Positions 6,988-36,919 of a DNA stretch of 45,113 nucleotides are shown piece after piece. Made by a program: the position numbers and the translations under genes. The notes below the pieces were generated by a model. That model did not search any database. It was not told the origin of the DNA and saw nothing but the letters and a program-made list of their open reading frames with translations. Within the stretch, counting starts at the first letter, position 1. Every line of letters starts with the position of its first letter. Source of the DNA: a virus (Duplodnaviria; Heunggongvirae; Uroviricota; Caudoviricetes); IMG/VR virus record IMGVR_UViG_3300021255_002784, positions 152,416 through 197,528 of that record; one strand, written 5' to 3'.

Positions 6988-7365
6988 ATGAAGTCATTAA
7001 AAGATATGCTTACGGAAAGTCTAGTTTGCGAATCTGTTGAAGACAAGATTATTAAGACAGCAGAAAAAGCATTCAGATCATTGATGAATAAAACCAAGAG
7101 TATACCAGATGAGATCGATCCTCTTATCAAACAGAACTTCAATGTAGTGGGTGACCGCCTCAATCATACAGAAGGATTGATCTACGGCACTATCGAGGAT
7201 AGTGGAAAGAAATATACTCTATGTCTAGATTCTGAAGATGATTGGAACGTCAGCAAAGAAACGTTCAATCTCAAGAAGATCATTTGTGTGCCTGGTGACT
7301 GTGAGGCTGACGGCAAAGAGGGCGACAAAGTACTAGACTCAATGTATGCTGCTTTAGGATACTAA
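6988..7365 (+). CDS. Putative internal head protein with capsid-targeting peptide
   Basis: Starts MKSLKDMLTESLVCES (ATG 6988); TTATTAT motif at 6962. Confidence 0.65.
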   Translation: MKSLKDMLTESLVCESVEDKIIKTAEKAFRSLMNKTKSIPDEIDPLIKQNFNVVGDRLNHTEGLIYGTIEDSGKKYTLCLDSEDDWNVSKETFNLKKIICVPGDCEADGKEGDKVLDSMYAALGY

Positions 7366-7366
7366 T

Positions 7367-7423
7367 ATGAAGAGCCTTTACGAAAGCGTATTAGATGCAG
7401 ATGCATTAGACAAAAACAAATAA
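7367..7423 (+). pseudogene. 18-aa mini-ORF consisting only of the targeting peptide (gene relic)
   Basis: Translates MKSLYESVLDADALDKNK*; starts two bases after the upstream stop and ends in the terminator. Confidence 0.55.
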
Positions 7424-7451
7424 AGGAGTCGATAAAAACCGACTCCTTTTT
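7422..7451 (+). terminator. Intrinsic terminator
   Basis: AAAGGAGTCG-loop-CGACTCCTTTTT. Confidence 0.8.
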
Positions 7452-7477
7452 CTATATATTATATAAACAGCACAAAC

Positions 7478-8452: not shown

Positions 8453-8477
8453 GATTGAGAATTTCCAAAAACATTTC

Positions 8478-8514
8478 TAAAGGCACCGATTCGTGAGAAT
8501 AGGTGTCTTTTTTT
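8478..8514 (+). terminator. Intrinsic terminator
   Basis: AAAGGCACC-GATTC-gtga-GAATA-GGTGTCTTT hairpin plus T run. Confidence 0.7.
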
Positions 8515-8569
8515 ACACCCATCCTAAAAAATCCAGTGTCCACTGTCATATTATATATATGTATATCAG

Positions 8570-8645: not shown

Positions 8646-8664
8646 AAATAAACAAAATTGACTT

Positions 8665-9417: not shown

Positions 9418-9482
9418 AAAATCTGGAGGAATTATATTTCCTCCTTTTTTTATATATATTTATACAAACACCAAACACATTT

Positions 9483-10081: not shown

Positions 10082-11326
10082 ATGAAACAATTATCTGCAT
10101 ATTTAGTAGAAAACGTTCGAAACATGTTCGAAGGAGGTCAGTCAGGTCACATGGCGCACCCCTTTGACTATACCGAGTTCACACTGCGCGACCTTAAAGG
10201 TCTCATCCGCAATCTATTTTCAGGGCGCATCGAAGACATAACCGAAAAAGTAGACGGCACCAATATCCAGGCCACTGTTAACAAAGAAGGTCAAGTGGTG
10301 TTCATTCGCAACAACGGCGACCTCAATAGCGCTGCTGGAGGAATGTCTATCTCGGACATGGCTACCAAGTGGGCCGACAAACCCAGTGTGGCCAAAACTT
10401 TCTTGACTGCCGGGGAGACCATCACCAAGGTGTTCGGAGCCATTCCTGATCCGGTGAGCTTCTTCAATCCTAAGGAAGGAATCAAGCGAGTTGTCAATTG
10501 TGAATGTGTGGTAGCAGGCAAGACTAACATTATGCCGTATGCATCAGCACAAGTAGACTTTCATAATATCTGGACATACGAGTTCGACGGTACTAAATGG
10601 GAGAAAGCCGACGTGTCCAAAAAAGGACTAGACGTCATCCAAAAAGCTTGCGAGACAGTAGACGGAGCTCAGATTACCCCTCATGTTTTTATTAAGACTA
10701 CTGAGGAGTCGGCAAAGGTTATGGTTGACTTTATCAAGGAGTTGGATAAGATTTGGAAAAGCGTAAGTCTCAACGAATATTCTACTATTGACGAATGGAA
10801 ACGAGCTCGTTTCAATGACCTCGTTTTGAGAGACTATGATTGGATCGCATCTAACATTGAGGGTATGGAAATTCTTTACAATCGTTGGTTCAATGCCGAC
10901 AGGTCCACTAACATCCGTCTCATCAAAAAACTATATCCAGATCACGAAGCTGAGTTGACAGCTCTCGAGGGTAAAGAAGCGAAGAAATTGGTGGATCGCG
11001 CTATGGAGCCACTAGATACCTTCTTTGGCAAGTTCGGCAACGCTGTTATTAAACAATGTGATGGTATTCTGAATGCGGGTCTTGAAAGTGCAACAATCGA
11101 ACAACTCAAGAAAGATATTGAAGAGGTAACTAATGACGTTCGCAAGAATGGCTCAGCTGAACTCAACGATAAACTCACTTATCAATTGGATCGTCTTGCC
11201 AAACTAGGCAATGAGATCAATCCAATTGAAGGTATTGTATTCCGATATAAAGGAAAGCTCATGAAATGCACTGGCTCCTTCGGTTCACTGAACGCTGTGC
11301 TCGGTAGCTTGAAGTTCCAACGATAG
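10082..11326 (+). CDS. RNA-ligase/covalent nucleotidyltransferase-superfamily protein with capsid-targeting peptide
   Basis: Starts MKQLSAYLVEN; GHMAHP; motif I TEKVDGTN; motifs IV/V IEGIVF...MKCTG. Confidence 0.7.
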   Translation: MKQLSAYLVENVRNMFEGGQSGHMAHPFDYTEFTLRDLKGLIRNLFSGRIEDITEKVDGTNIQATVNKEGQVVFIRNNGDLNSAAGGMSISDMATKWADKPSVAKTFLTAGETITKVFGAIPDPVSFFNPKEGIKRVVNCECVVAGKTNIMPYASAQVDFHNIWTYEFDGTKWEKADVSKKGLDVIQKACETVDGAQITPHVFIKTTEESAKVMVDFIKELDKIWKSVSLNEYSTIDEWKRARFNDLVLRDYDWIASNIEGMEILYNRWFNADRSTNIRLIKKLYPDHEAELTALEGKEAKKLVDRAMEPLDTFFGKFGNAVIKQCDGILNAGLESATIEQLKKDIEEVTNDVRKNGSAELNDKLTYQLDRLAKLGNEINPIEGIVFRYKGKLMKCTGSFGSLNAVLGSLKFQR

Positions 11327-12381: not shown

Positions 12382-13527
12382 ATGAAAGATCTAACAACAT
12401 ATTTGAACGAAAACGTTGCACCAATGTTTGAATCCCACATGCAAAGGAAAGAGTGGGAACATCGTGGTGACTATAAATATGCATACGCCGTGATAGGTAT
12501 GTTGATCAACGGCAAACCGATTGCTACAGGTGATAAGACTGCAACCGGCTCATATGAAGCAACACCGGAAGAGATAGAGATTCTTAAATCCTTCGACCCA
12601 ACAGAGCATACCATGGAGGATTTCAATGAGATATTCCGCGGCAAATTGAAATGGCAAGACATTTTCAAAGGAAGTTTTTCCGGATATGAAGGCGGTCTTG
12701 CATCAGGCAACCAAGGTAAAGCCTTTGAAGATGAGTTTTGTAAGGACTTCGAATCTAAATATCGTGAGGACATGGAAAAAGCTCTTGGTCTTAAACCCGG
12801 AGAACTAATGGGATATGAAGCCACTCCACGCGGTGCCGAGAATCAGCGTCGACCTCTAACTATGGATGGTAAGAACATTGTATTAAGCATACCAAACGGT
12901 AACAAGAATATTGGTGAAACCGTAGTAGATGTCGAAGTGGCTCCTCTTTACGAATTGAAGAGTAAGGATAAAGACGAATCTATCATGCTGTCACTCAAAT
13001 TCGGACCAAAAGTTACCTTCTGCAATGCTGGTATTACTCATCTATTCCCAAAGACTGCGTTCAGCAAATTCGAAAAAGATGGTGAGTTCGTCCCTCAAAA
13101 CGTAGGACAAATCAAAGGACAAACTATGCTGGACATGTTTGGTCTGGATCCCAACAAGTTTGCGGAAACCTTTGTCAAGTATCAACAAAAGAAAGACTAT
13201 GACACAGATGTTGATGTCACTGACAAGATAGACAAAGATATGATATTCGCGTTCCTGGAATCTGTTGTGGGGTACGGGTACGTACTTGTTCACAAGTTGG
13301 GCAGTAAGACACATTACGTTGATCTTCGAGAAAAACGCGATATGAACAAACTGCTTGGGCATTCGATCAAAAAAGCCGTAGTTCATTACGGTGGTAAAAA
13401 AGGTACATCCAAATATGTATCTGTTGACATGGAACTTGAACATATGGATTTGCAATTTGACTTCCGGGATAAACAAGGAGGATCGTTACCGAGAAGTCTG
13501 ATGGCTAATTATACTATCAAGTACTAA
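12382..13527 (+). CDS. Putative internal head protein, possible PD-(D/E)XK nuclease fold
   Basis: Starts MKDLTTYLNEN; G..FE helix, VVDV and LSLK motifs resemble restriction-endonuclease-fold active sites. Confidence 0.5.
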   Translation: MKDLTTYLNENVAPMFESHMQRKEWEHRGDYKYAYAVIGMLINGKPIATGDKTATGSYEATPEEIEILKSFDPTEHTMEDFNEIFRGKLKWQDIFKGSFSGYEGGLASGNQGKAFEDEFCKDFESKYREDMEKALGLKPGELMGYEATPRGAENQRRPLTMDGKNIVLSIPNGNKNIGETVVDVEVAPLYELKSKDKDESIMLSLKFGPKVTFCNAGITHLFPKTAFSKFEKDGEFVPQNVGQIKGQTMLDMFGLDPNKFAETFVKYQQKKDYDTDVDVTDKIDKDMIFAFLESVVGYGYVLVHKLGSKTHYVDLREKRDMNKLLGHSIKKAVVHYGGKKGTSKYVSVDMELEHMDLQFDFRDKQGGSLPRSLMANYTIKY

Positions 13528-14218: not shown

Positions 14219-14656
14219 TTAGCGAATCATATCAAAAAATTTGGCATCAGCCATATTGAACTTCGGTACATCTACTACGCGCACGATCCCATTTTTGTCT
14301 GGAGTCTTGCTCTTCGCACCCAACCAACACAATTCAAGACCGAGATTGTCTCCGAGTTTTGCAACCCAAGTCCTCTCTCTCATATTCAGTCCCATGCGCA
14401 CAGATTTGATCTCTTTGTCTGTCAGTTCTGTCAGGTCGTATGAATCGGCGAATTTTTCAGCTGACTTAGCATCGGGTACTTCGACGTTTATAGATATCTC
14501 TGCATCGTACAGTTCCGGGTCGTTTTTTATCTTCATCCCACAAGAAGTGATGGCTTTTTTCAAATCATCTACTGTGACGCCATGCTTCTTTAGCAGCCGG
14601 TTGTCCAGAGTGGTCTTGTTTAGTGCTTCGTTTAGATAAGCAGTTATTGTTTTCAC
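14219..14656 (-). CDS. Putative internal head protein with capsid-targeting peptide
   Basis: GTG start at 14656 gives MKTITAYLNEAL. Confidence 0.6.
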   Translation of the reverse strand: MKTITAYLNEALNKTTLDNRLLKKHGVTVDDLKKAITSCGMKIKNDPELYDAEISINVEVPDAKSAEKFADSYDLTELTDKEIKSVRMGLNMRERTWVAKLGDNLGLELCWLGAKSKTPDKNGIVRVVDVPKFNMADAKFFDMIR

Positions 14657-15285: not shown

Positions 15286-15825
15286 TTAGAGCATGTCTTC
15301 AAAAGAAACCATCAGTGCACGAATATATGCTTTGTACGGACTCTTCAGATTACGAATTGCGAGCACAATCTTGTCGTGCTGTGGCGAATCCATGAAAGCA
15401 CGGATCTTCTCTTCCATCTCATCATTCCACATGTCTTGTGCTTCTGTTTCTGCGTTATCAGCTAGATCATCGGGATCGTCGCCGTTCTCTACTGCAATCT
15501 GAAATACCTTCCATGGATTCCAGGAGTCTTCTGGTAGTTTATCGCATAGATTGCGAAGAACATCTTCATCGTGTCCTTCAACAACTAGGCTTTCGTTCAA
15601 ACATTCTTGTAATGATTTCATAGTATGCTGTTCTGTATTTATTGAATCTTCGAGATGTTCCTTAAGACCTTTAGTTTTTGCAAAGTCTTCCAATTGCTTG
15701 TCAGTCATATCTGAATTGACGATCTTCATCACTTCGTCATCCACCTCTGACTTGTTCATATCACCTTTGCGTACGGCTAGTGCCATAGCGAACAAGGCTC
15801 GTTGTGCTTTTGATTTTGCTGGCAT
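15286..15825 (-). CDS. DUF3008-like N-terminal domain fused to a targeting-peptide-bearing helical domain
   Basis: MPAKSKAQ...ALA..KG...M.DKQLEDFA.TKGL resembles DUF3008; internal MKSLQECLNESL at 15621. Confidence 0.6.
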   Translation of the reverse strand: MPAKSKAQRALFAMALAVRKGDMNKSEVDDEVMKIVNSDMTDKQLEDFAKTKGLKEHLEDSINTEQHTMKSLQECLNESLVVEGHDEDVLRNLCDKLPEDSWNPWKVFQIAVENGDDPDDLADNAETEAQDMWNDEMEEKIRAFMDSPQHDKIVLAIRNLKSPYKAYIRALMVSFEDML

Positions 15826-17021: not shown

Positions 17022-17585
17022 TCACCGGAACACAAAAACACATCCACTATCGTCGATTTTTGGTGTTTGTTTGAATATATTTGATAGACGTTTTATCCAT
17101 TTATTATCACTAGTGGCATCCACTTGAATAACCCTCGGTTTTATATCCAGAGGATCATATCTGAACTCCATTATGCATGGGATTACGACTGCGTTTTTAA
17201 GGCCGCCTCGATTGATGATCCCACCATTCTTTTTGTCCTGCGTTCTCCAATAACCATCGATAACCACAGAATAGAATAGTCTGTTTGCCTTACGAGTATT
17301 CAAGGAACTGGTTACACGCAGTTCGTATTTGATAGGCGCCTCTTCAACACATTTTGTACCAAAATTGGTATTGTATTGTTCGACTATTGATGGCCACTCG
17401 TCATCATGAGGCAATAAGTCGTACTTTTTGATCGCATCTTTTATATTATGTTTGACTCGAGGGGCGTTATATTCTTCACGCAGACCTTTTTTCAAAGGTT
17501 CCCATATAGATAAAAACATTTCTGCGGATTTATCGGCTTTATCTATGATGTCGTCATCTAATATGCTTTCGTACAATGTTTTCAT
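17022..17585 (-). CDS. Putative internal head protein with capsid-targeting peptide
   Basis: Starts MKTLYESILD (ATG 17585); TTATTAT at 17594-17600. Confidence 0.65.
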   Translation of the reverse strand: MKTLYESILDDDIIDKADKSAEMFLSIWEPLKKGLREEYNAPRVKHNIKDAIKKYDLLPHDDEWPSIVEQYNTNFGTKCVEEAPIKYELRVTSSLNTRKANRLFYSVVIDGYWRTQDKKNGGIINRGGLKNAVVIPCIMEFRYDPLDIKPRVIQVDATSDNKWIKRLSNIFKQTPKIDDSGCVFVFR

Positions 17586-17683: not shown

Positions 17684-18118
17684 TTAATCTAATTGATAAG
17701 GATTTACATAGTAATAAATATAATTCTTAGTCGTTTTTCCTGGTTTTAATGATAGGGCATCTTCCAATTTCTTTATCCATTTTTCGTCGATATAATCTGA
17801 TATAGGCACCGCCAATACATTTCCAGTCCGGTTTGTTTGAAAAATATAAACATCTGTGGTCCCTCCATGATCGACACCTCCATCAACATCTTTTACATAT
17901 TCATATCTCGCTTTATAACGCGAGTTAGCTAGTCTCCAATATGCGCCATTTATTGCAATACCCAATATATCCATATATCGGTCCAACTTCTCTAAATTTT
18001 TCTCAGAACCACCTGCGAATAATATGTCAGATAGCTCCATTTTTATTCCAGCCTTGTCCTTTACTGAAATAGTCTCATTTGTCAGACTTTCTATAAGTAC
18101 TTCACTTAAATTTTTCAT
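17684..18118 (-). CDS. Putative internal head protein with capsid-targeting peptide
   Basis: Starts MKNLSEVLIESLTNET. Confidence 0.65.
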   Translation of the reverse strand: MKNLSEVLIESLTNETISVKDKAGIKMELSDILFAGGSEKNLEKLDRYMDILGIAINGAYWRLANSRYKARYEYVKDVDGGVDHGGTTDVYIFQTNRTGNVLAVPISDYIDEKWIKKLEDALSLKPGKTTKNYIYYYVNPYQLD

Positions 18119-24421: not shown

Positions 24422-24447
24422 CACCACCGTGTATTATTATTGAAAAT

Positions 24448-25002
24448 ATGAAACGCGTCAACTTAATGATAGGTCGATTCCAACCATTTACGACCGGGCA
24501 CTATAAATGTGTCGAAGAGGCTATGAAGAAAAAGGGTCTGCCTACTGTAGTAGCTATGATCAACACTACTATGGAGAAGGTAGATGAAAAACACCCTTTT
24601 CCTTCTTCATTGACACTTCCACTATACAACGACCTATTCAAAAAAGACAAGAACCTAGAAAAGTTCATCCTGGTCAACAGCGCAGATATCGTTAAGATTA
24701 GTGAGGAGTTCGCCAAAGAAGGATACCAGATCGCCAGTTGGACTTGCGGTACAGATCGTATCGATGCCTATACTCGTATGTCGGATAAGTATCACGACCA
24801 GGCTAATCTGGCTGACGACTTCGAGATGATTGAGATTTTCCGTACTGGAGATGACGTCAGCGCAACCAAGGTACGTAAAGCACTCATTGATGGTGACAAA
24901 AAGGCATTCTATTCTATGGTACCTATGGTACACCTATCTACTCGTTTAAAAAATGATTACTACGAAATACTTAAAGAGCAAATTGACAAGGTAGTTAAAT
25001 GA
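24448..25002 (+). CDS. HIGH-class nucleotidyltransferase (cytidyltransferase/NMNAT-like)
   Basis: GRFQPFTTGH, CGTDR and SATKVR motifs. Confidence 0.88.
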   Translation: MKRVNLMIGRFQPFTTGHYKCVEEAMKKKGLPTVVAMINTTMEKVDEKHPFPSSLTLPLYNDLFKKDKNLEKFILVNSADIVKISEEFAKEGYQIASWTCGTDRIDAYTRMSDKYHDQANLADDFEMIEIFRTGDDVSATKVRKALIDGDKKAFYSMVPMVHLSTRLKNDYYEILKEQIDKVVK

Positions 25003-25361
25003 AAAGTCTAGTTGAATCTATATCCGAATCATTGCGTCGAACAGATGATGCTTATGAACAAATCAATGATATTTGTAGTAAGTTGGTTAAAAAGGACCCG
25101 GATTGCTGGGACCCTCGGAGCTGGATCCAGGAGATGATCAAAGATTGGGGTCGTCAGGACCTAGATGAGCTTGATATCGAAGAAAAAATAAGAACGATCG
25201 ATCGCGAAGTGGACGACATGGACAACGAGACGATCGATGAGATCAAGGCGTTGCTAAAACACAAAAAAGAATACAACCAGTTACTAGTAGCACTGGACGA
25301 ATGGTATCATCCTATCGCAAAATACATCGTCGCCCTGCTGAAGGAAGTGGAATATAAATAA
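24999..25361 (+). CDS. Putative internal head protein; paralogue of the C-terminal domain of 15286-15825
   Basis: Starts MKSLVESISES; shares C.KL...D.W.P and I.A....Y/H..L..AL....P...YI.AL. Confidence 0.65.
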   Translation: MKSLVESISESLRRTDDAYEQINDICSKLVKKDPDCWDPRSWIQEMIKDWGRQDLDELDIEEKIRTIDREVDDMDNETIDEIKALLKHKKEYNQLLVALDEWYHPIAKYIVALLKEVEYK

Positions 25362-25936
25362 TGAAAAGCCTATCCTCATATCTAAAACTACATGGTAACT
25401 TTACTGTGGCTGGGACCAAGTCGGAGAAACTTCTTATCTTCGACGTGGACGATACTCTTATCCACACCAGCGCCAAGATATGGGTGATGAAGGACGATGA
25501 ACACATCAAGACTCTGACCAATGCAGAATATAATGACTACAAGAAGAAGCCGGATGAGTGGTTCGACTATCGAGAGTTCAACGATCCGAAGATCCTCTCT
25601 CGGGAAACTTTCACACGCTATTGGGGCACTCTCAAACGCGAGTACCACAAAGGAACCCACATAAACATACTCACTGCACGAGGAGATGCTCGTATGATTC
25701 GCCGTTTCTTTCTTAAGAACGGTATTGATATCAAAGACGAATTAGTGTTCGCTGTTGGCGATCCGCGTCTGGGTCTGGCTGGGTCTATCCAGGAAAAGAA
25801 AGCAACCATCATTCGTGAACTGGTGGCACTAGGTTATCATACTCTCGTTTTCTTCGATGACAACGAAGGTAACCTTGAGGCTGCTAAAGCGCTTGAAAAA
25901 GAATTAGGTATAAAAATACATACTGTAAAAGCATGA
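25361..25936 (+). CDS. HAD-superfamily phosphatase (Pnkp 3'-phosphatase-like) with targeting-like N-terminus
   Basis: FDVDDTL (motif I), LTARG (II), K (III), FFDDN (IV); starts MKSLSSYL. Confidence 0.82.
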   Translation: MKSLSSYLKLHGNFTVAGTKSEKLLIFDVDDTLIHTSAKIWVMKDDEHIKTLTNAEYNDYKKKPDEWFDYREFNDPKILSRETFTRYWGTLKREYHKGTHINILTARGDARMIRRFFLKNGIDIKDELVFAVGDPRLGLAGSIQEKKATIIRELVALGYHTLVFFDDNEGNLEAAKALEKELGIKIHTVKA

Positions 25937-27420
25937 AAAGTTTATCAGAATACATGCAAGAAAGCCTCAGAATCAGTACAAATGATTCAGATTCTAAAGA
26001 ATACATATTTGAAAACGGCGATGATTCTATTTTATACCAGCTTGCCAAGAACATCTGGAACTGGCAAGTTAAAAGAGCCCGTCGTAATTGCGAATCTGCA
26101 ATGAAAAAATATAAGATCAACCAAAACGACCCCAGACCAGGCCTTCTCCGTTGGTTCAAAGATAACTTTCCTCCTATTCCAGACAGCGGCAAAGAGATTA
26201 TCCCTCGCGATCAGTGGGATATACAAGGCATCATCGGGCAGACAGAAAACCAGATCATGCACAAACACTATGATGAGATTGTCAAGTACCATTGTCAACA
26301 TCCGGATAAAAGACATGATGTGCTAGTCATTTTCGAGTGTTCTAACAAGAAACCCTATGATGATGTAGCATCTAATCGGATGTATCTTCGTGTGTTTGGT
26401 AATTATGTTGATTTCGCTAACGCGGATTACGGATTGATCCCATATGCGTACTGTGAATTATATCCATATCGATATGATGAATGGGATCACTATAGTGAAG
26501 GAGAATATGGGTCGTGGTGGTACAGAGAAGTTAGTAAGATTAACTTTAAGATCTTCATGGATGCTTGGGGATACAAGCGTGCTGTGGTTGTGATGCAAAA
26601 CCCCCACCCTCGCCAGTTCCTCAAAGAGATTAAAGAGCAAAACTTATTTGGTTGGGGAGACAAGATGGATTTCGTCACAGACGATGCTTTCGATAAAGAG
26701 ATGAGCGACAAATATAAGTCTGTTTTCGGAGGTGGCGGTCTTTTGATAACTCGTATGATGGGTTTACAAGAAACAAAAGCCAAAACAGCCAAACTCATCA
26801 AGAAAGCTTTGGAAGAAATCGGCGGATCTAAAAAGGATATTAAAGAACTGGGCGAGATATATCACGTATTCAACACAACGGATTCAAAAGATAAGCCCAC
26901 CAAGAAACTGATCGAACTAGGTCTATATAGCAAGCCTGCTTATGCAGAGTGGCCTTACGGAGAGAAGAAGGAGAAAGTAGACGAATCTTTTGTTTACGAA
27001 GGCATGAATCAACATGATTTCGGTAAGAAGCTAACCCAACTTCAAAAAGAACTCGACGGTCTGGACATCGATGATATCAAGGAGCAGAAGATTGAAAAAG
27101 ATATGGGTGATGACATTGATCTCGTCAAGAATCCAGATGACTTATATAAAATATATCAATGGGCTTGGCCTTGTGGCAAATTGCTTTATTGGATGAAGGG
27201 AAAGAAATTGGATACCAATCTCCAAAAAGAATATGAATCTTTGAGAGATTTCATGCATAACCAAAAGGATTGGGGTTGCATCAACAATTACTTCTTCTAT
27301 TATAAACCCATCACTGATAAGTTGGGTTGGAAAGAAAGTGATGTTTGGGATAAAGCTCTTAAGATACATTTTATTGAGGACGAAAAAGCAAACGTAAAAA
27401 AAGATATAATATGGCCGTAA
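25933..27420 (+). CDS. ArcS/DUF5591-like (archaeosine synthase core) protein with capsid-targeting peptide
   Basis: VLVIFECSNKKPY followed by YGLIP...E.YP...DEWD, matching the ArcS core C-x3-KPY...G.VP...E..YP...YD; starts MKSLSEYMQES. Confidence 0.6.
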   Translation: MKSLSEYMQESLRISTNDSDSKEYIFENGDDSILYQLAKNIWNWQVKRARRNCESAMKKYKINQNDPRPGLLRWFKDNFPPIPDSGKEIIPRDQWDIQGIIGQTENQIMHKHYDEIVKYHCQHPDKRHDVLVIFECSNKKPYDDVASNRMYLRVFGNYVDFANADYGLIPYAYCELYPYRYDEWDHYSEGEYGSWWYREVSKINFKIFMDAWGYKRAVVVMQNPHPRQFLKEIKEQNLFGWGDKMDFVTDDAFDKEMSDKYKSVFGGGGLLITRMMGLQETKAKTAKLIKKALEEIGGSKKDIKELGEIYHVFNTTDSKDKPTKKLIELGLYSKPAYAEWPYGEKKEKVDESFVYEGMNQHDFGKKLTQLQKELDGLDIDDIKEQKIEKDMGDDIDLVKNPDDLYKIYQWAWPCGKLLYWMKGKKLDTNLQKEYESLRDFMHNQKDWGCINNYFFYYKPITDKLGWKESDVWDKALKIHFIEDEKANVKKDIIWP

Positions 27421-27424: not shown

Positions 27425-27754
27425 ATGAAAAATCTAACAGACTATATATCAGAACGCTTGATGTTAGAAAGCGAAAACCACACCATTGCAATAAAATTGT
27501 CAGACGTTAAAGATAAAGAATATTACGTTGAACAATATGCAGAAAAACTTAAATCCGAAGGATATAATGTTGATGATATTATATATGACGATTCTGAAGC
27601 CATAATACAACTTAAAGGGTTTTATAAAAATAAAGATGTTTTGAAGTTATATAAGAAATATAAGTCGATGCTGGTTGTTGACAATTCTGATTGGACAGAC
27701 GAAAACAAATTATTAAATTATCTTAAGAAAAAAACAAAAATAGAAGATATATGA
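27425..27754 (+). CDS. Putative internal head protein
   Basis: Starts MKNLTDYISERLMLES; noticeably AT-rich. Confidence 0.65.
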   Translation: MKNLTDYISERLMLESENHTIAIKLSDVKDKEYYVEQYAEKLKSEGYNVDDIIYDDSEAIIQLKGFYKNKDVLKLYKKYKSMLVVDNSDWTDENKLLNYLKKKTKIEDI

Positions 27755-28131
27755 AAAGTCTATACGAATCTGTCCTAGAGAAGAACATGGAGTTCACCAA
27801 AAAGATTGAGCTGGACTTCACCATCAATAAGACTTTGCATGCCACCGAACGTCAGTCACGTCATGGTACGGATAAGGATAACTTCATCAGTGATGACGAG
27901 ATACTCGAAGAGGTAAAACGTGCATCCGAGACTATCATTGAGGATATTCTCCAGAATAATATACGGCTAGGATGGAGATTCATCGTTCGGAACCCCGATA
28001 CCGATCTGAATGTGGTGTGCTCACTGCATAAAGGAGAGGCTAAGGATCATTTCCGTGTAGACATCATTACTGTTATGAGATCAGACGAGTTTCGTAACCA
28101 GAAAAATACGTGGATTATTACCAACAAATAA
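27751..28131 (+). CDS. Putative BECR-fold (DUF4258/RelE-like) RNase with capsid-targeting peptide
   Basis: T.HA.ER..R...IS..EI...IITVMR pattern; starts MKSLYESVLE. Confidence 0.5.
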   Translation: MKSLYESVLEKNMEFTKKIELDFTINKTLHATERQSRHGTDKDNFISDDEILEEVKRASETIIEDILQNNIRLGWRFIVRNPDTDLNVVCSLHKGEAKDHFRVDIITVMRSDEFRNQKNTWIITNK

Positions 28132-28144: not shown

Positions 28145-28447
28145 ATGAAAACACTAACAGAATCAATCGGGAGTGGATTAAGAACGACGTTCAGTATTGC
28201 TGAGACAGACTCTAATAAAGGTGCTGCATATACTACTATAGATACAGTAGATCCTAAACGTAGCTATAAGCACGGTTTTCTTTCTTATTCACAATATGAC
28301 GAATCCATCTTTTTAGTAGCATTCGACACAGTAGAAGAACTCCAAGAATTACTCGATACAGACGATGATGATTACAGTCGTCTTCTTAACATGAAACCTC
28401 AGGAATGCAAAACGATTCGCGGTGAGTTGTTTGTTAAATTATGGTAA
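28145..28447 (+). CDS. Putative internal head protein
   Basis: Starts MKTLTESIG. Confidence 0.6.
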   Translation: MKTLTESIGSGLRTTFSIAETDSNKGAAYTTIDTVDPKRSYKHGFLSYSQYDESIFLVAFDTVEELQELLDTDDDDYSRLLNMKPQECKTIRGELFVKLW

Positions 28448-28462: not shown

Positions 28463-28693
28463 ATGAAAAGTTTATATGAATCCCTAAATACAACCGACGA
28501 GATAGTAGTTTTGAGCCCCGATGAATTAAAAGAATTACTGAAATTCGTCAAAGGGAACGAAAAACGAGGGGTGTGCATCCGGTATCAGGCGGACTACAAT
28601 AATGAATGGAATCAGACGTCTGTATGTTTTTACGACGAACGAAATGGCAAGGGACCTCGAAATTGGCCTTGGAAGACAATTGCTTCAAATTAA
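28463..28693 (+). CDS. Putative internal head protein
   Basis: Starts MKSLYESLN. Confidence 0.6.
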   Translation: MKSLYESLNTTDEIVVLSPDELKELLKFVKGNEKRGVCIRYQADYNNEWNQTSVCFYDERNGKGPRNWPWKTIASN

Positions 28694-28738: not shown

Positions 28739-29254
28739 ATGAAATCACTAAAAGAATGTTTATTGGAGGCAATATCAGTAGATACTGAAGATCTTTCCAA
28801 AAAAGAAAAAGCTGCAGTAGAAAATTTGGATACATATCTCAAGTTTATTGAGGATAAATTAGCAGATAATATAAGCGAAGATTGGCTTAAACATCATAAG
28901 AAACCTTTTGCTATTTATTCAAATGAAATGAAAGGACCTGTGTTCACCTTTGAACGCAAAGCTAAGGATTTGGAAAATGACAAGATATCTGACGAGCCTA
29001 TTTGGAAGGAAGTGTGTGATTACACTCCTAAGGGTTTTGTTTCAAAAACATATCTTACACCGACCTACTATGAAAAACTGCTAGCAAATACTGGTGTCAT
29101 GTTTGTATGGAGTGTATATGGCTCGTACGGTCCAGAAGGAGGTCACGACCGAAAATTTGTCGATATTTGTTTGGATATCAAGTTTAGACCATCATCATAT
29201 AAATTCTTACAAGAATATGTATGCGATAAATTGACGGAAATGTTAATAAAATAA
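28739..29254 (+). CDS. Putative internal head protein
   Basis: Starts MKSLKECLLEA. Confidence 0.65.
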   Translation: MKSLKECLLEAISVDTEDLSKKEKAAVENLDTYLKFIEDKLADNISEDWLKHHKKPFAIYSNEMKGPVFTFERKAKDLENDKISDEPIWKEVCDYTPKGFVSKTYLTPTYYEKLLANTGVMFVWSVYGSYGPEGGHDRKFVDICLDIKFRPSSYKFLQEYVCDKLTEMLIK

Positions 29255-29277: not shown

Positions 29278-29310
29278 AATCCAGTTCTCTTAAACAGGGG
29301 GCTGGATTTT
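29278..29310 (+). terminator. Intrinsic terminator overlapping a TTATTAT motif
   Basis: AATCCAGTTCTCT-taaac-AGGGGGCTGGATTTT. Confidence 0.65.
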
Positions 29311-29339: not shown

Positions 29340-29876
29340 ATGAAATCACTTCAGCAATACCTACTCGAAGCACTGCAACAGACCAAAATAGACTCCGAAC
29401 AACTATATCAGTTGTACACGGATCAGATTGAGGTCAAAGCGTTTGCTTTGAATAACAAAATAACAGAAAAAGAAGCCCAGCACGTATACGATGTGCTTCA
29501 TTCTGACGATATTGTCATTGTTTCTGAAGAGCAGATGCGAGCCAAATATGATAAAGACGAAGTCAAAGAGATATTTGATCATATCGGTGACTTAGTTGCC
29601 GCTGGTACCCGCTACGGTAATCAACTCGGTTTATCCCCTGAAGAGAAGAAACAACGAGAAGAAGCAGAAAAAGCACTCGCAGATAAGACTGGTGAAAAAC
29701 CAAAAAAATCTAAAGTGGATGACCTGGACTTTGTCAATCAATGTAATACAGACTTTGTAGGAGTGGCTCCCGAATCCATATCTGAGTTCTTCTGGAAAAA
29801 GAGTGGAGATTCGGGTTATCTGTACTTTATTATTAACTCAACTCCTGATGTTGAAGATTTACTCAAACAAATATAA
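29340..29876 (+). CDS. Putative internal head protein
   Basis: Starts MKSLQQYLLEA; TTATTAT upstream. Confidence 0.65.
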   Translation: MKSLQQYLLEALQQTKIDSEQLYQLYTDQIEVKAFALNNKITEKEAQHVYDVLHSDDIVIVSEEQMRAKYDKDEVKEIFDHIGDLVAAGTRYGNQLGLSPEEKKQREEAEKALADKTGEKPKKSKVDDLDFVNQCNTDFVGVAPESISEFFWKKSGDSGYLYFIINSTPDVEDLLKQI

Positions 29877-29883: not shown

Positions 29884-31467
29884 ATGTTAGCAACGTTATT
29901 AGCAGTTGGTATGTGTGCTTGGTTTTGCTCTCAAGCTCTTCCTGAAGGTATGAAAGGTGGCGGAGCCGGCATAGGTGCAGGCATAGGTGGTTTACTTGCA
30001 ACCTGCATAATGGGTCTCCTTCCTGAAAACCGCCGTAAAAAAGAGGAGGACAAGCTAAAGCATGAAATCGAAATGACCAAGCTTCGCAAGGAGTTGGAAA
30101 ATGTCAAGAACGGTAAGAAAGATGACCAGAAAAAAGAAGAGTTGGAAAAATCTGATAAGGAAAATGAAGCCATTCTTAATGAAGGCATGAGTGATCCGAA
30201 GGTATTCGCCAGTATAGTAAAGTCTTGCGATGCCATTAAAGACCCGGTTGAAAAGGAAACCATGACGCAGCGATTTAATATGATTCGTTGTGCACAATAC
30301 GATAAGGATGGTAATCCACGCACTCAGAAAGATGTCCAAAAATGGATGACAGAGAACATCCCGGCTGAAGACCTACAGACCATTGTCGAATCAGCCAACA
30401 AACAAATAGGCAACACTGAATTGACTCCTGAACTAGCTGAAGAATTAAAAAACAGTATTCCTGAAGCAACTGACGAAGACATACAAGCTGAAAAGGAAAA
30501 AGCTACCAAAATATCTGCAGAGATGGGTGTGCAGCTCGAAGCTGATGCGACTAAACGCAAAGAGATGAAGGCTGAAATCGAACGTCTGGGGCAAGAAAAA
30601 GAAGCCAAGCAGGCCGAACTAGATAAATCCATTGCTGACGCAGGTGCTGATGAAGAAGCTATCAAAAAAGCAAAATTAGTTAAAGCTGAGTTCAACAAAA
30701 ACATCACCACACAGATATACGACAAGAAGAAGGAGGCAGCTGAGTTTGAATCTAAATGTCAGACAGCTAAGTTCCTAGATAGTACTAATCCTGCACGAAA
30801 AGATCGCGTAGAAGCAGCCATCAAAAAGGTGGATGAGGAACGCAAAACAGCCATCGATGCAATAGATAAAGAGATTGCTGATGCTGGTGGTAAAGCTGAG
30901 ACTAAAAAGGACAGCAAAACCGAAGAAATCCCTGGATACGATGCTGATGGAGATCCTGATGGTACAAAATGGGTAAAGACCGCAGACAAGAATGGCAACG
31001 AAACATTCGCACTGCTCGATAAAGATGGTAACAAACTTGATGCATCCAAAGAAGACTTCGAAAAGGCTAAAAAGGATCACGAGGAAAACTCTAAAAGTGA
31101 TGACGTATCCAATGGAGATGATGAAAAAGATGGTGATGTAGATACAGATGCTAATGACGCTGATGGTGAAGAAGTAGATGATGGCAATGGTGGTAAGAAA
31201 AAGGTTTTGAAAAACCCCGCACAGGCTTGGCATAAAAAGAAAAACAAAGCTACAGGAAAGACAACCAAATCATACTACAATAAAAAAGGTGAATCTATCT
31301 CTCAAAAGGAGTTTCATGAGAAAATGCAGAAGTATCAAGCAACCAAGGCTAAAATGAAACGAGAAAGTGTAAGTTTCAAAGAATTTCTATCAAATCATTA
31401 CATAGCAGAATCAGGCAAACAATACTCATCATTACGTGACTCAATCCTTAAAAACATACACGACTAA
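29884..31467 (+). CDS. Membrane-anchored-type coiled-coil protein with acidic low-complexity region
   Basis: Hydrophobic N-terminus with GAGIGAGIGG zipper, long K/E/A coiled coil, D/G-rich tract, C-terminal SFKEFL...IAES. Confidence 0.7.
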   Translation: MLATLLAVGMCAWFCSQALPEGMKGGGAGIGAGIGGLLATCIMGLLPENRRKKEEDKLKHEIEMTKLRKELENVKNGKKDDQKKEELEKSDKENEAILNEGMSDPKVFASIVKSCDAIKDPVEKETMTQRFNMIRCAQYDKDGNPRTQKDVQKWMTENIPAEDLQTIVESANKQIGNTELTPELAEELKNSIPEATDEDIQAEKEKATKISAEMGVQLEADATKRKEMKAEIERLGQEKEAKQAELDKSIADAGADEEAIKKAKLVKAEFNKNITTQIYDKKKEAAEFESKCQTAKFLDSTNPARKDRVEAAIKKVDEERKTAIDAIDKEIADAGGKAETKKDSKTEEIPGYDADGDPDGTKWVKTADKNGNETFALLDKDGNKLDASKEDFEKAKKDHEENSKSDDVSNGDDEKDGDVDTDANDADGEEVDDGNGGKKKVLKNPAQAWHKKKNKATGKTTKSYYNKKGESISQKEFHEKMQKYQATKAKMKRESVSFKEFLSNHYIAESGKQYSSLRDSILKNIHD

Positions 31468-31578: not shown

Positions 31579-33006
31579 ATGGCAAAAAATTGTTTGGTAT
31601 ACGAAACACTTCAACCGATTAACGAGATGCAACGCACCGTCACCTCAGACGGATTGATGCATTTGAAAGGTACATTCGGTGTATGTGGTGTCAAGAATAA
31701 CAACCAACGCATCTACGAAGCCGGCAACTATGGTAAGATGGTGGCAGAGATGAAAAAACGTCTTGAGCACAGTCCTATTCTTGGTGAGCTTGAACATCCT
31801 TCAACCATGAACATCACCCTCGAAAACGTATCGCACAAGATCACGGATATCAATATCGATGAGAATGGTGTAGTTACTGGCGAAGTCGTTCTTTTGAACA
31901 CTCCGAAGGGTAAGGTAGCCCAGGCTATCGTTGAGGGCGGGGCACCACTTTATATTTCTTCACGAGCACAGGGCATGGTGGATCCACGTACAAGCGTTGT
32001 TACATTGGAAAACCTAGCAACTTATGACTTGGTCGGATCGCCGGGTTTCTCTCAGGCAGAACTCCATCTTAATGAGGGTCAGGTTGCTGAATCAATCTGT
32101 GAGTCCTGTGGAGTAGTGTACATCAGCGAAGGTCAAGATTCTAATGCAAACGAAACAAATGTAAATCAAGATATGGAAAAAGAAATACTTGAAAAGATCA
32201 CTGCGCTCGAATCCAAAGTGGCTGCTTTGGAAGCAGATAACGCAAATCTTAAAGAGCAGCTCGAAGATACCGACAAATTCGACAAGAAAGCACTCTGCGA
32301 TGGTATTCAAAAATGGATTCTCGAAGAGTTCGCACCAACTATCCAGAAGTACATCGTTGAGCAGTACTCACCAGAAGTACAGAAGTGGGTTGTTGAGTCA
32401 TTTGCACCAGAAGTACAGAAATGGGTGGTTGAGCAGTACTCACCTGAAATCCAAAAATGGATTCTCGAACAGTACTCACCAGAAGTACAACGTTGGACAC
32501 AAACCGAGTTCGCAACTGGTGTTCAAAACTGGTTTATAGACGAATGTGCACCAGCCTTCGAGAAGTGGGTAACCGAGAACTACGGTTCAGAAGTAGCAAA
32601 CCAAATCACCGAAGCAGTCGAGAAGAGCAAGAAGAACAGCTTGTCCAACATCGAAAGTACGCTCAACCTGTTGGAAGGTATCCAACCAACCAAACCAGCT
32701 TATCCTGGACAAACACCAAAGTCACAAATCGTTACAGAAGGTGCACCTAAGTACATCTCTGAGATGCCTGCAGATGCACGTGTTAAGTACGATTTGGCAA
32801 GTCAGGATATCAAAGAGGCTATTGAGCGCCGCGCTAAATTGTTTGATTTCAACAAACACTCTGTTAACGAGTTCTGGGCTGGTGTTAACTTCGACACCAT
32901 TAAACCTGTAACTACTATCGTGGAAGGTGCAACAGTAATCACTAACGAACGCGAACGTGCTATCCGTGCTCAGTTGGCTTCGTGGCACAGCAAACGTTTC
33001 GGTTAA
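31579..33006 (+). CDS. Prohead maturation protease (T4 gp21-like) with scaffold-like C-terminal extension
   Basis: N.N.RIY, LGELEHP, VSH.I, L.TPKG, ISSRAQG, TYDLVGSPGF motifs, then coiled coil and 12-aa repeats. Confidence 0.9.
   Translation: MAKNCLVYETLQPINEMQRTVTSDGLMHLKGTFGVCGVKNNNQRIYEAGNYGKMVAEMKKRLEHSPILGELEHPSTMNITLENVSHKITDINIDENGVVTGEVVLLNTPKGKVAQAIVEGGAPLYISSRAQGMVDPRTSVVTLENLATYDLVGSPGFSQAELHLNEGQVAESICESCGVVYISEGQDSNANETNVNQDMEKEILEKITALESKVAALEADNANLKEQLEDTDKFDKKALCDGIQKWILEEFAPTIQKYIVEQYSPEVQKWVVESFAPEVQKWVVEQYSPEIQKWILEQYSPEVQRWTQTEFATGVQNWFIDECAPAFEKWVTENYGSEVANQITEAVEKSKKNSLSNIESTLNLLEGIQPTKPAYPGQTPKSQIVTEGAPKYISEMPADARVKYDLASQDIKEAIERRAKLFDFNKHSVNEFWAGVNFDTIKPVTTIVEGATVITNERERAIRAQLASWHSKRFG
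32305..32595 (+). repeat. About 8 tandem 36-bp (12-aa) intragenic repeats
   Basis: (I/V)QKW(I/V)(L/V)E(Q/E/S)(Y/F)(S/A)PE units. Confidence 0.9.
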
Positions 33007-33026
33007 ATTCCGACACACATTATTTC

Positions 33027-33534: not shown

Positions 33535-33537
33535 TAT

Positions 33538-34977
33538 ATGGCACAAATCGAAGTTAAATTTGATCATCAACTCAAGCAGACTCCTATTGCGATTCCTCTT
33601 GTCACCCCAGACGGCAGTGAGGAACAAGGCGTCAATGAGATGACAGGATCCAATGTACCTATCAAGCAAACGGCTATGTACGGTATCCGTGTCCCTCTAA
33701 TCAAGATAAAAGATATAGTTGTGGACATGAATAACATTGTGCGTATGGAGTTAGATGGTCGAGGCCCCTTACCCAGATTAAATCTCTCCGTCATCGATCG
33801 CGATAATAAAATACGTGGATTACAGAATCCTGAATCAGATAACGAAATTCGCATTCAGATTCTTCCGCGATTCGAGAACGCTTACAAGAAGATAGACCTT
33901 ACCTTTTATGCTGAAAACTATCGAGCTCAGGGATCTGTCTTGTCCTTTAACTGTGTGTACAAACTACCGGCTCTGTATGATAGTCGCATCAGATGTTTTG
34001 GCAAGGTGTCTACATACGACATGTTCGAACGGATAGCTCAGGAATGTCAATTAGGCTTCGCATCTAATGTAGAAGCCAGTGATGATATAAGATATTTATA
34101 CTGTGCCAACACGTCTTACAACAACCTAATGGAGAGAGCCATATCTACTTCTGGTACATCCGGGGAAGACATATCATCTCAAATCATGTACGATTATTGG
34201 GTAGACTTCTGGAACAATCTTAATTTTGTGGATGTCTATGAACGATATAATACGGTTGAACCAGACGAGAACATCCAAGTGTGGATAGGTCCATCAGAAA
34301 TAGCGGTTGATCAAGATGAGGATGATGAACACACATACTCGAAAGAAACTGCGATCATATCCAATAATCCTTTAGCCAACGGTACAGAGTTGTTTATCGA
34401 TCATTACAACATCATCAACAATTCTACACAATCCCAAAGTGGATCTGATAGGGTACTGTCTATATATAATATGAATGCTGGCGAATCCCTGGACTACCTC
34501 TTATCAGACGGTGACCAACAGAAAGATGTGTTTATCAAATATGAATACGTAGGAGAGTGCTACGGTGACTTCAACTATTTACTGGCTAGTCGATGTCGTA
34601 ATATGATGAAAAATAAAATGGGGCAGCAGATCGTCGAAGTGGTGCTTGGTTCGCCTATGTTATCTTTGACAAGAGGTGGTAAAGTCAATCTTGCTTGGTA
34701 CGATATGGGTTCTAATCTCGCCGACATAAAAGCGGAATTGGGTGACGTTGTCCAACCCACATCTTCTAATATACCTCTCCCTGATGATAAAGAGGATATC
34801 GAAAAGGCCGGACCTATGTTTCGTCTGAACAGAACGATAACAGGTCAGTATTATATACTTAACAGTGTGATCAGATTTGAAAATAGTCGATGGACTAACA
34901 CCTTACAATTAGTACGCCCACGAGACAAAGTGATGAGTCCTGTAGACATGACCGAAGCATATGAAAATATTGAATGA
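33538..34977 (+). CDS. Putative baseplate hub protein (gp27-like)
   Basis: Follows the gp53-like gene; P.L.L...D, IA....L, Y.YWVD, and C-terminal LTRG.KV...TGQY.I......L.L.R pattern. Confidence 0.6.
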   Translation: MAQIEVKFDHQLKQTPIAIPLVTPDGSEEQGVNEMTGSNVPIKQTAMYGIRVPLIKIKDIVVDMNNIVRMELDGRGPLPRLNLSVIDRDNKIRGLQNPESDNEIRIQILPRFENAYKKIDLTFYAENYRAQGSVLSFNCVYKLPALYDSRIRCFGKVSTYDMFERIAQECQLGFASNVEASDDIRYLYCANTSYNNLMERAISTSGTSGEDISSQIMYDYWVDFWNNLNFVDVYERYNTVEPDENIQVWIGPSEIAVDQDEDDEHTYSKETAIISNNPLANGTELFIDHYNIINNSTQSQSGSDRVLSIYNMNAGESLDYLLSDGDQQKDVFIKYEYVGECYGDFNYLLASRCRNMMKNKMGQQIVEVVLGSPMLSLTRGGKVNLAWYDMGSNLADIKAELGDVVQPTSSNIPLPDDKEDIEKAGPMFRLNRTITGQYYILNSVIRFENSRWTNTLQLVRPRDKVMSPVDMTEAYENIE

Positions 34978-34979
34978 TA

Positions 34980-36494
34980 ATGAGCTCAATCGATAGAAAA
35001 TTGGAACGCGGTGCTGATTTGAAAACCATGTACGAGGTGGATCCACTTTCATACAAGGTTATCAAAAACCTTATATACGACTGGAGACGTAGTGGTACCA
35101 GATCATCAGAATTCAATCGTTTTGATGTACCTGGTCATCTATTCTTTAAGATAGTGTTCCACTTCTGGAACGGCGACGCCTATAATGTGGATGAGAGCTA
35201 TGCCAATCACAATGGTCTGCTAACTCCGGCCTGGTTGTACATGAGCGAGGCTGACAGTCAATCTATGAGAAGTAAGATGAACGACAAACAAGAACAATTG
35301 GAAAAAGACCAGATGGGAGATCACTACGATCCACATCAGTATCTTGAACAAGCCCTGAGGCAGAACTGTGCTTATAACTTCCTCATTCGTAATGATGAAC
35401 TAGAGCGAGCCGATCTGCTTAAACAGTTCATCACCTTGCTATCAAACATCAGTACATACAGCCCGTGGTATTTTGCAGAAGTATCTGGTTTGGATGCAGT
35501 CATGGAGCGCCCTTTCAAATCAGATGACGATTACAAGGTGGAGAATCCAAAGCAGATTACCATTAAATGCATGCCAGATGCACAAGATAATCGTGTGGCC
35601 ACCCTACTGGATCTGTATCGTTCTGTAGCTTATTCGTACGTATGGCACAAAGAGATTCTTCCTGCCAACCTGCGTAAGTTCGATATGAGTATATACATAT
35701 TCAGTTCACCGGTTACCAATCTCCATTCCAAAAAAGGTGCTTATGGTGCAACCATGGGTATTGAAGATAATGGTTTTCGCAAGTTACAATCTGAAGACTT
35801 CTGGTTCTCGTCATACAAATGCATCGAACTACATGATTGCGAAATCGACTACAATGCTCTCAAATCAGGGTATGGAACCCTGACTAATGCAGAAGGATTC
35901 GCTCAGGAGTTCTCCATACCCATCGCAGTAGGAGATGCTTTCGAACAGCGTTACAACCCATATATCGATCGTCTGATTGGAGATGCTATTGCTATCGATG
36001 TAGTGCGCAATACTTATTCGCCAAATGGTGCTATCAATTATATATTCACAGATGAAGAACAAAAAGATAACGACACTGTACTGGATGCTTTCAAACGTCG
36101 ACTATACAAGTATGACTCCAATGTATCTGGAATAGAGATTGATGCGCTCAGATTGATAGATGACACAACCGGTAACGTGGTTTCGAACTTTACTCAGAGT
36201 CAACTACTCGGCAACATCTTCAAAGCATCCATTGGGGATCTGACTCGAGACTTCCGACGCCTGTCTCAATCAGCTCAGGCTGGTAACATAGGAGGAGTCA
36301 TAGGAGGAGGCAAAGCCTTTCAACAGTTAGGAAATGGATGGGTTTATAAAGCACCACCAAAAACAAACATTTATAATCGTCAGGAAAACCGCGGAAGTGA
36401 TCAGAGTAAACTTCCTGAAACGAATATATATGACGGTACGAACTATAAAAATACTGATAAACCCCAGAATCCTAATAATATATTCAATCGATAA
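34980..36494 (+). CDS. Putative baseplate/tail-tube initiator-type structural protein
   Basis: In the baseplate operon; V.GLD...ITI.C...D.R...LLDLYR...P.NLRKFDM.IYI tube-like pattern. Confidence 0.5.
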   Translation: MSSIDRKLERGADLKTMYEVDPLSYKVIKNLIYDWRRSGTRSSEFNRFDVPGHLFFKIVFHFWNGDAYNVDESYANHNGLLTPAWLYMSEADSQSMRSKMNDKQEQLEKDQMGDHYDPHQYLEQALRQNCAYNFLIRNDELERADLLKQFITLLSNISTYSPWYFAEVSGLDAVMERPFKSDDDYKVENPKQITIKCMPDAQDNRVATLLDLYRSVAYSYVWHKEILPANLRKFDMSIYIFSSPVTNLHSKKGAYGATMGIEDNGFRKLQSEDFWFSSYKCIELHDCEIDYNALKSGYGTLTNAEGFAQEFSIPIAVGDAFEQRYNPYIDRLIGDAIAIDVVRNTYSPNGAINYIFTDEEQKDNDTVLDAFKRRLYKYDSNVSGIEIDALRLIDDTTGNVVSNFTQSQLLGNIFKASIGDLTRDFRRLSQSAQAGNIGGVIGGGKAFQQLGNGWVYKAPPKTNIYNRQENRGSDQSKLPETNIYDGTNYKNTDKPQNPNNIFNR

Positions 36495-36919
36495 TGAAAC
36501 AACTGTCTGCTTATTTATTGGAGAACACCAAAGATCCGGCGCGCATATTTGTGATTGTGAAACCAGGATTCTACAAGTACATTCATGAGATTCTTGAACG
36601 CTTCGAAAAGGATGATTGGAAGTTGGAAAAAATCACTACCAAGCAACTTCTACTCAAGGAAGCGAAACGCCTTTATGCCATCCACAAAGATGAAGAATGG
36701 TACGAGGATCTGTGTGAGTACATGTCCAGCGAACCTACTACAGCCATGATTCTCAAAAACGAAAACATGGTAATGAGCCCTGAGATATTCGATAAGGTCG
36801 ATGTCATCAAGGACGAGATCCGTAAGAAGTACGGTGAGGACGAAATGCGTAATGTAATCCATTCCAGTGATTCCATGGTTCATATGAACAATGAAAAATC
36901 CGTTTATTTCGCGATTTAA
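36494..36919 (+). CDS. ndk: Nucleoside diphosphate kinase with capsid-targeting peptide
   Basis: FVIVKP, Y..H....Y..L..YMSS.P, IR..YG....RNVIHSSDS (catalytic His), E...YF; starts MKQLSAYLLEN. Confidence 0.9.
   Translation: MKQLSAYLLENTKDPARIFVIVKPGFYKYIHEILERFEKDDWKLEKITTKQLLLKEAKRLYAIHKDEEWYEDLCEYMSSEPTTAMILKNENMVMSPEIFDKVDVIKDEIRKKYGEDEMRNVIHSSDSMVHMNNEKSVYFAI

Follow-up and report, generated by a model that had tools for sequence, protein, structure and literature searches.

The stretch of DNA analysed here, which we call the window, is the final 45 kb (45,113 nucleotides) of IMG/VR record IMGVR_UViG_3300021255_002784, a complete phage sequence of 197,528 bp with direct repeats at its ends. 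It contains a 7-deazaguanine gene set (QueD, QueE, a DpdA-like gene, FolE2 and a QueC-like gene), a sigma factor (3372), a NUDIX hydrolase, homing endonucleases, tail-fibre and baseplate-like genes, an SbcC/gp46-like gene (37410) and the head protease; the genes for the major capsid protein (genome 7654-9384), the portal (genome 29549-31252) and the sheath lie outside it. Between positions 6988 and 36919 of the window, many genes begin with versions of one 10-residue peptide, M-K-[STN]-[LI]-x-[EQ]-[YSF]-[IL]-x-[ED], which we refer to as the tag. We found the tag throughout the genome, and its conserved positions closely match the targeting and cleavage positions of the peptide that directs proteins into the head of phage T4. 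As far as can be judged from sequence, the phage probably loads its capsid with a large and quickly changing set of proteins.

The tagged genes of the window lie in several groups. On the plus strand, the first is an open reading frame (ORF) of 125 residues at 6988..7365 (MKSLKDMLTESL), which has the heptamer TTATTAT at 6962-6968 and matches no Pfam family. It is followed at 7367..7423 by an 18-codon ORF that consists of the tag only (MKSLYESVLDADALDKNK) and ends in two stops, a GC-rich hairpin and a T-run terminator (site 7367-7460). Further along the same strand are an RNA-ligase-like enzyme of 414 residues (10082..11326), whose leader MKQLSAYLVENVRNMFE runs into an invariant GGQSGHM, and a 381-residue ORF (12382..13527; MKDLTTYLNENV) with TTATTAT at 12338; homing-endonuclease genes occupy the space between these two (11397-12362, +). 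Four carriers are on the minus strand: a 145-residue ORF with a GTG start (14219..14656; VKTITAYLNEAL), which is the weakest call of the set; a 179-residue ORF (15286..15825) made of a DUF3008 domain in its first 52 residues, an internal tag (MKSLQECLNESL) at 15621 and a 100-residue body; a 187-residue ORF with Asp at tag position 10 (17022..17585; MKTLYESILDDD; TTATTAT at 17600-17594); and a 144-residue ORF (17684..18118; MKNLSEVLIESL).

A further series is on the plus strand and starts in an operon led by TTATTAT at 24434. Its first gene is untagged and NMNAT-like (24448-25002), and its second is the tagged 120-residue ORF g209 (24999..25361; MKSLVESISESL). There follow an HAD-like hydrolase of 191 residues with a partial tag (25361..25936; MKSLSSYLKLHG), a tagged 495-residue protein with a weak DUF5591 (ArcS-like) match (25933..27420), tagged ORFs of 109 residues (27425..27754; MKNLTDYISERL) and 126 residues (27751..28131; MKSLYESVLEKN), partial tags on ORFs of 100 residues (28145..28447; MKTLTESIGSGL) and 76 residues (28463..28693; MKSLYESLNTTD), and tagged ORFs of 171 residues (28739..29254; MKSLKECLLEAI) and 178 residues (29340..29876; MKSLQQYLLEAL; TTATTAT at 29309). 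The last carrier (36494..36919, +) is a nucleoside diphosphate kinase (NDK) of 141 residues with a 17-residue leader (Pfam NDK 7e-22, residues 18-139), the final gene of a TTATTAT-led baseplate-like operon.

The original prediction had listed 18 such N-termini, and all are present at their coordinates and strands, with three refinements: the start at 14656 is GTG, the entry at 7367 is the 18-codon ORF, and that at 15621 is internal to the 179-residue ORF. The tags at 25361, 28145 and 28463 are there but have no acidic residue at position 10. As it had also proposed, the tag is absent from QueD, QueE, the DpdA-like gene, FolE2, the QueC-like gene, the sigma factor and the SbcC/gp46-like gene; no gene for SSB, which it had also named, was identified. 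Its estimate of about 18 carriers was too low: once relaxed variants are counted, 36-39 of the approximately 227 genes of the genome are tagged, with another 18-21 tagged genes outside the window.

A weight-matrix scan, as had been suggested, and pattern scans revealed enrichment of the tag genome-wide, and the pattern scans also did so in relatives. With the strict expression M[KRQT]x[LIFM]xxx[LIVMF]x[ED], we found 29 true starts among 227 predicted genes (23 first-ATG N-termini and 6 Met that are clearly true starts), relative to 0.43 expected. The 1369 internal Met gave 11 matches, which comprise six mis-called starts, two genuine internal tags and three chance-like matches (2.6 expected). 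A weight matrix built on positions 3-12 only, and run over all six frames of the 197.5 kb, gave 35 matches of at least 14 bits, and 32 of these fall on a Met. Hence, the motif is specific to N-termini.

The tag is encoded in many ways. Ser at position 3 is written as AGT, AGC, TCA, TCG and TCC, so both serine codon families are used, and Leu at position 4 is written with five codons (CTA, CTG, CTT, TTA and TTG). For comparison, we took four related IMG/VR contigs whole (protease identity 95%, 53%, 52% and 48%), which together with this phage make five genomes, and found that relatives spanning 31-41% guanine-plus-cytosine (GC) retain the same peptide. This pattern points to selection on the tag peptide and not on RNA.

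Mullaney & Black 1996 is reportedly the source for the capsid targeting sequence (CTS) of T4, the peptide that gp21 removes from IPI, IPII, IPIII, Alt and gp24. In the T4 record, the N-termini are MKTYQEFIAE/A for IPII and IPIII, MKTFKEF for IPI, MAKINELLRE/S for gp24, MELITELFDED for Alt and MLKEQLIAE/A for gp22 (a slash marks the end of the leader). The first 10 residues of IPIII are enough for incorporation into the T4 head, residues 4 and 7 serve targeting, residues 8 and 10 serve processing, and Asp at position 10 stops processing with targeting unaffected (PMC9026906, a review of Black's work). Among 123 tags from the five genomes, the counts are L93/I26 at position 4, Y48/S46/F12 at position 7, I70/L45 at position 8 and E73/D38 at position 10, and these are partly circular since the tags were chosen on positions 4, 7, 8 and 10 themselves. 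In addition, Glu is conserved at position 6, and position 11 is often small (S44/D18/G14/N13). Hence, at the level of sequence, the conserved tag positions 4, 7, 8 and 10 closely match the positions at which the T4 peptide is targeted and cut.

The likeness extends to the design of the peptide and of its carriers. Both are 10-residue N-terminal peptides that begin Met-Lys-Thr/Ser, in which positions 4 and 7 are hydrophobic or aromatic, position 8 is Ile or Leu, and Glu at position 10 is followed by a small residue; both are attached to unrelated, fast-evolving proteins whose set is hypervariable between related phages; and in both cases the head module encodes a serine protease of the gp21 family. 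Late expression would be a further likeness if TTATTAT marks late transcription in this phage. The two differ in scale, with about 36-39 carriers (approximately 16% of genes) here and fewer than 10 in T4, and in position 4, which is nearly always Leu or Ile here and Tyr or Phe in T4. In contrast to T4, some tags are internal, between two domains, and carriers include housekeeping-type enzymes (NDK, RNA ligase, HAD-like and MATCAP); the protease continues into a scaffold part that contains repeats, and translation signals are of the Bacteroidota type.

A further difference from T4 is a large subclass with Asp at position 10, which makes up about a quarter of the tags. These leaders (MKSLYESILDDEE... 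in this genome and MKSLxESLFDKDL... in relatives) also resemble the leader of Alt. Two tagged Asp-10 genes (genome 68876 and 69388) stand directly after a 26-tRNA island at genome 60100-68685; T4 ipI, too, is only a few genes away from the T4 tRNA cluster.

The protease that the original prediction had placed at 31579 is confirmed. The gene (31579..33006, +; phrog_207 1e-37) encodes a prohead protease of the T4 gp21 family in residues ~1-237, followed by a scaffold-like C-terminal part. Its Pfam score for Peptidase_S77 is 34.2 bits (cut-off 27) and that for S80 is 29.4, and the catalytic His73 and Ser127/128 do not vary and line up with LGELNHP and VSSRG in T4 gp21. The C-terminal half has a coiled-coil stretch and 7-8 tandem 12-residue units, PEVQKW[VI]VEQ[YF][SA], at ~32296-32550; the units are present in all relatives, in varying number, and each contains a hydrophobic-x-Glu site. 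For the density of such sites, the protease-scaffold fusion ranks second in the proteome and g209 (24999) ranks first. The 12-residue repeats may be a docking platform for the tag or a region of self-degradation.

Directly upstream of the protease is an untagged 527-residue protein (29884..31467, +) with a glycine-rich hydrophobic N-terminus and a coiled-coil-like body very rich in Lys, Glu and Asp. It has no family matches, and its homolog in one relative (G003) begins in a tag-like manner, MKNLNEHIIQ. We regard it as a candidate prohead core or scaffold component. The capsid protein (phrog_138) has the N-terminus MILTE/N..IISE/S..MFE/A, which aligns with the propeptide region of T4 gp23, and the portal matches phrog_213. 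Hence, T4-like (Straboviridae-type) features of the head module are present, namely a capsid protein of the gp23 type whose N-terminus has a propeptide, a portal like gp20 and a protease beside a scaffold. Overall similarity is low, and by that measure the phage is not a close T4 relative. Homing-endonuclease genes come right after the capsid gene (genome 9536-11248), and the Tenacibaculum phage PTm1 has one two genes past its capsid gene.

By head protease, the nearest cultured relatives are the Tenacibaculum jumbo phages PTm1 and pT24 and the Prevotella Lak phages (32-37% identity in protein-level searches); megablast of the head module against GenBank phages gave no match. A Shine-Dalgarno-like site precedes only 6% of genes, A makes up 46% of the upstream regions, and the products of 26% of all genes of this genome start with Met-Lys. 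A Bacteroidota-type host, probably a species of about 40% GC, is likely, given the few Shine-Dalgarno sites, which Bacteroidota phages lack as well, the A-rich upstream regions and these protease relatives.

TTATTAT is the most enriched 7-mer 5' of genes, found at 41 genes relative to 3.4 expected (12-fold), and it precedes the capsid, portal, sheath, protease, baseplate-wedge and fibre genes. From the genes that follow it, the motif would be a late promoter. The tag had been said to lie mostly behind this motif, and we found this to hold for transcription units and not for single genes: TTATTAT is directly upstream of only 9 tagged genes, whereas a count by units places 30 of 36 tagged genes behind it, relative to 82 of the 191 that are untagged (p = 7e-6, odds ratio 6.6). 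In the long block of plus-strand genes between 31 and 100 kb, presumed to be early and middle genes, few are in TTATTAT-led units and only four are tagged. Hence, equal frequency on early or replication genes, which had been named as a finding that would refute the proposed role, is not what this block shows.

The bodies behind the tag are diverse. All-against-all BLASTP of 38 bodies of this genome, each minus its first 14 residues, detected two related pairs only, both outside the window, which bears out the earlier description of the bodies as unrelated. Clustering of the bodies of the 123 tagged ORFs from the five genomes gives 83 groups. Only 14 of 122 tagged proteins match a Pfam family (NDK 4, MATCAP peptidase 3, DUF285 2, RNA ligase 2, and DUF5591, FIMAH and PepSY 1 each). 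The MATCAP (DUF1704) metallopeptidase family includes two tandem tagged paralogs at genome 130749-133119 (-), downstream of a TTATTAT-led gene of 540 residues. The Pfam domain occupies NDK from residue 18 onwards and the HAD-like protein from residue 23 onwards. Hence, the tag is an add-on in these two proteins, since the domain begins after it.

The set of carriers changes rapidly. The relative whose protease is 95% identical (G001) is missing several of the tagged genes that the window has near the head module and has different ones instead. In G001, the gap between the DpdA-like gene and FolE2 contains three complete tagged genes (492, 184 and 106 residues), and the window has one there (125 residues), the tag-only ORF and the terminator; a deleted tagged gene has evidently left the 18-codon ORF at 7367 as its stump. 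As these gene orders indicate, close relatives swap tagged genes at fixed sites. Two more relatives, with 41% protease identity, gave 19 and 26 pattern hits, relative to 1-2 with a reversed-pattern control. PTm1, for which a virion proteome exists, was considered as a proxy and dropped: the genes round its protease are untagged and its whole genome has only ~7 pattern hits.

The RNA-ligase-like protein and NDK allow the junction between leader and body to be followed across many homologs. In an AlphaFold (AF2) model of the 10082..11326 protein (mean predicted local distance difference test score 88), residues 1-22 are a detached low-confidence helix and the body scores ~90; the modelled fold of the body matches RNA ligases. 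The protein has 586 metagenomic homologs. Among the 120 of these that were listed, 75 have the 10-residue tag as leader, and other leaders are 13 or 17 residues long, are coiled-coil-like and of 24-41 residues, or comprise a whole 198-residue NMNAT domain with a tag-like linker. In all 120 listed homologs, the last leader residue is a Glu that abuts the invariant GG[AQ][SA]GHM, in most cases within hydrophobic-x-Glu. Such a pattern is what one would expect of a conserved cleavage junction.

For NDK, 48 of 51 phage-type homologs carry the tag. Four NDK homologs (P0165, P0166, P0168 and P0170) have DUF3008, a tag-like linker and NDK in the same layout as the ORF at window 15286-15825, and DUF3008 thus recurs as an N-terminal domain ahead of a tag-like linker and a cargo body. 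In some relatives of the ligase (P0007 and P0008), an NMNAT-like cytidylyltransferase is fused 5' of the tag-like linker and the RNA ligase.

These observations suggest how the system might work. Tagged proteins would be made late, alongside virion proteins, and the tag would form a short amphipathic N-terminal helix that binds the assembling prohead core. The core is probably the scaffold part of the protease-scaffold fusion together with neighbouring charged proteins. The gp21-family protease would then cut after the Glu of hydrophobic-x-Glu, either at tag positions 8-10 or at a second site a few residues on, and the mature protein would be freed within the head and, by analogy with IPI-III and Alt of T4, ejected with the DNA. 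Proteins of the Asp-10 subclass (MKSLYESILDD...) are probably targeted and not cut at position 10, and internal tags, in the order domain-tag-domain, are probably cleavable joints. Cleavage after Glu had been expected of the carriers; about a quarter of the tags have Asp-10, and some tags are internal. One copy of every carrier totals ~0.85 MDa, and internal protein in a T4 head amounts to roughly 10-20 MDa. Hence, tens of copies of each would fit.

On balance, we favour the reading that the tag is a T4-type capsid-targeting propeptide system expanded to approximately 16% of genes, and we consider it fairly likely. All computational tests support a portable T4-like tag together with a gp21-type protease, as originally predicted; core binding, packaging and presence in the virion, cleavage after Glu and ejection or injection are steps that we infer from sequence. 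A more specific and joint reading is that a large and widespread uncultured clade of 160-280 kb phages with Bacteroidota-type signals devotes about one-sixth of its genes to capsid cargo, including working enzymes delivered with the DNA (NDK, RNA ligase, ArcS-like, phosphatase and peptidases), with Glu-10 tags cut, Asp-10 tags kept and cleavable joints in the DUF3008-tag-NDK and NMNAT-tag-ligase proteins. This combination is tentative, and we regard it as quite possible rather than probable.

Several points weigh against the favoured reading. A CTS-like start alone is no proof of packaging: T4 gene 61.1 (NC_000866 18966-19130; 54 residues), which lies in the early region beside the primase gene, starts MKTFKEFIKE and is nearly identical to the IPI leader, and we know of no report of it as a head protein. 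The cultured relative PTm1 has few possible tags only, and we found no virion proteome of the uncultured clade. Housekeeping-type enzymes (NDK, HAD-like hydrolase and RNA ligase) are unexpected as head cargo and could mean another use of the tag. One tagged gene is within a baseplate operon (genome 106589-107317), and NDK is at the end of a baseplate-like one. NDK orthologs vary at position 10 (K, P and S), so cleavage there is not general, and the invariant Glu before GGxSGHM of the ligases might belong to the enzyme core instead.

The tag might target the prohead core on carriers that are mostly core or scaffold components, degraded and lost like gp67, gp68 and gp22 of T4, and not injected cargo. 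Many carriers are small orphans encoded beside the protease and the charged scaffold-like protein, T4 core proteins have similar N-termini (MEGLIEAI and MLKEQLIAE), and g209 ranks first for hydrophobic-x-Glu density. However, the folded enzymes (NDK, RNA ligase, MATCAP and HAD-like) and the leucine-rich-repeat-type DUF285 proteins are unlikely scaffolds, and the rapid turnover of carriers between close relatives suits accessory cargo better than an essential scaffold. We therefore think it unlikely that degraded core components make up most of the set.

It is similarly improbable that the tag sends late proteins elsewhere, such as to a chaperone, an enzyme complex of the late phase or a different compartment of the virion. 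No co-occurring alternative receptor was identified, the phage has a protease of the gp21 type and a capsid propeptide like that of T4, and the tag agrees position by position with the T4 CTS, the only experimentally mapped signal of such shape. The same features that count against head loading are the ones that would favour a different destination: the tagging of nucleotide and RNA enzymes (NDK, ligase and HAD-like), the tagged genes within or ending baseplate operons, and the variable cleavage residue of the NDK orthologs.

A by-product origin of the motif, whether by a bias of initiation or mRNA in a host without Shine-Dalgarno signals, by shared 5' homology for recombination or as the relic of one paralog family, is very unlikely. 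The 6% of Shine-Dalgarno-like sites, the 46% A upstream and the 26% of Met-Lys starts would suit a bias, and genes have been replaced at the edges of tags. Neither mRNA bias nor homology for recombination suffices as an explanation because synonymous codons vary freely at the conserved residues, with both serine families in use, and because positions 4, 6, 7, 8 and 10 are kept as amino acids across 31-41% GC; the bodies are independent folds with cellular homologs, and the motif is rare in the presumed early 31-100 kb block, which the same ribosomes translate. We give the least credence to a leader for a modifying enzyme, as in ribosomally synthesized and post-translationally modified peptides, since the carriers are folded proteins of up to 966 residues and not short precursors and since each of the five tag-bearing genomes has a single radical-SAM gene, QueE-like and of the 7-deazaguanine pathway (one genome also has a sub-threshold second match; no search was made for a SPASM domain or other maturase families), even though peptidase-like MATCAP proteins are among the tagged set.

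Head loading by a cleaved leader, the reading that we favour, has other parallels. In the giant phages phiKZ, 201phi2-1 and SPN3US, many head-internal proteins are cut after Glu by a gp21-related protease (PMC5694885, PMC7411985). Peptidase S80, the family of that system, is also matched by the protease here, and these giant phages have paralogs with identical N-termini and packaged enzymes such as the virion RNA polymerase. In contrast, their propeptides are mostly 80-270 residues long, share no 10-mer and have the cleavage motif S/A/G-x-E, whereas the leader here is short, uniform and T4-like. The cargo-loading peptides of encapsulins, in which a short portable peptide brings unrelated enzymes into an HK97-fold shell, offer an analogy only; unlike the tag, they are usually C-terminal and not removed by a protease, and the shell is without DNA and without injection.

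The targeting principle itself is already established from T4, and the CTS and the loading of diverse proteins by T-even phages have been published (PMC3012670, PMC9026906). We found no publications linking the CTS to Bacteroidota phages. New here are the clade, the scale, the presence of the tag on nearly all members of the NDK and RNA-ligase families, the class with Asp-10 and the domain-tag-domain fusions. The gain over T4 thus lies in scale, host range and type of cargo.

The Glu-10 and Asp-10 tags, the internal tags and the variable leaders that all end in Glu are natural variants with which targeting could be separated from cleavage. If the reading is true, the tag would also be a protein-loading signal for engineering phages of hosts in which T4 tools fail. 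If the tag works as in T4, the injected proteome of an abundant uncultured phage group would be readable from sequence, and each genome would hold dozens of candidate anti-defence and takeover proteins along with enzymes that act before any phage gene is expressed.

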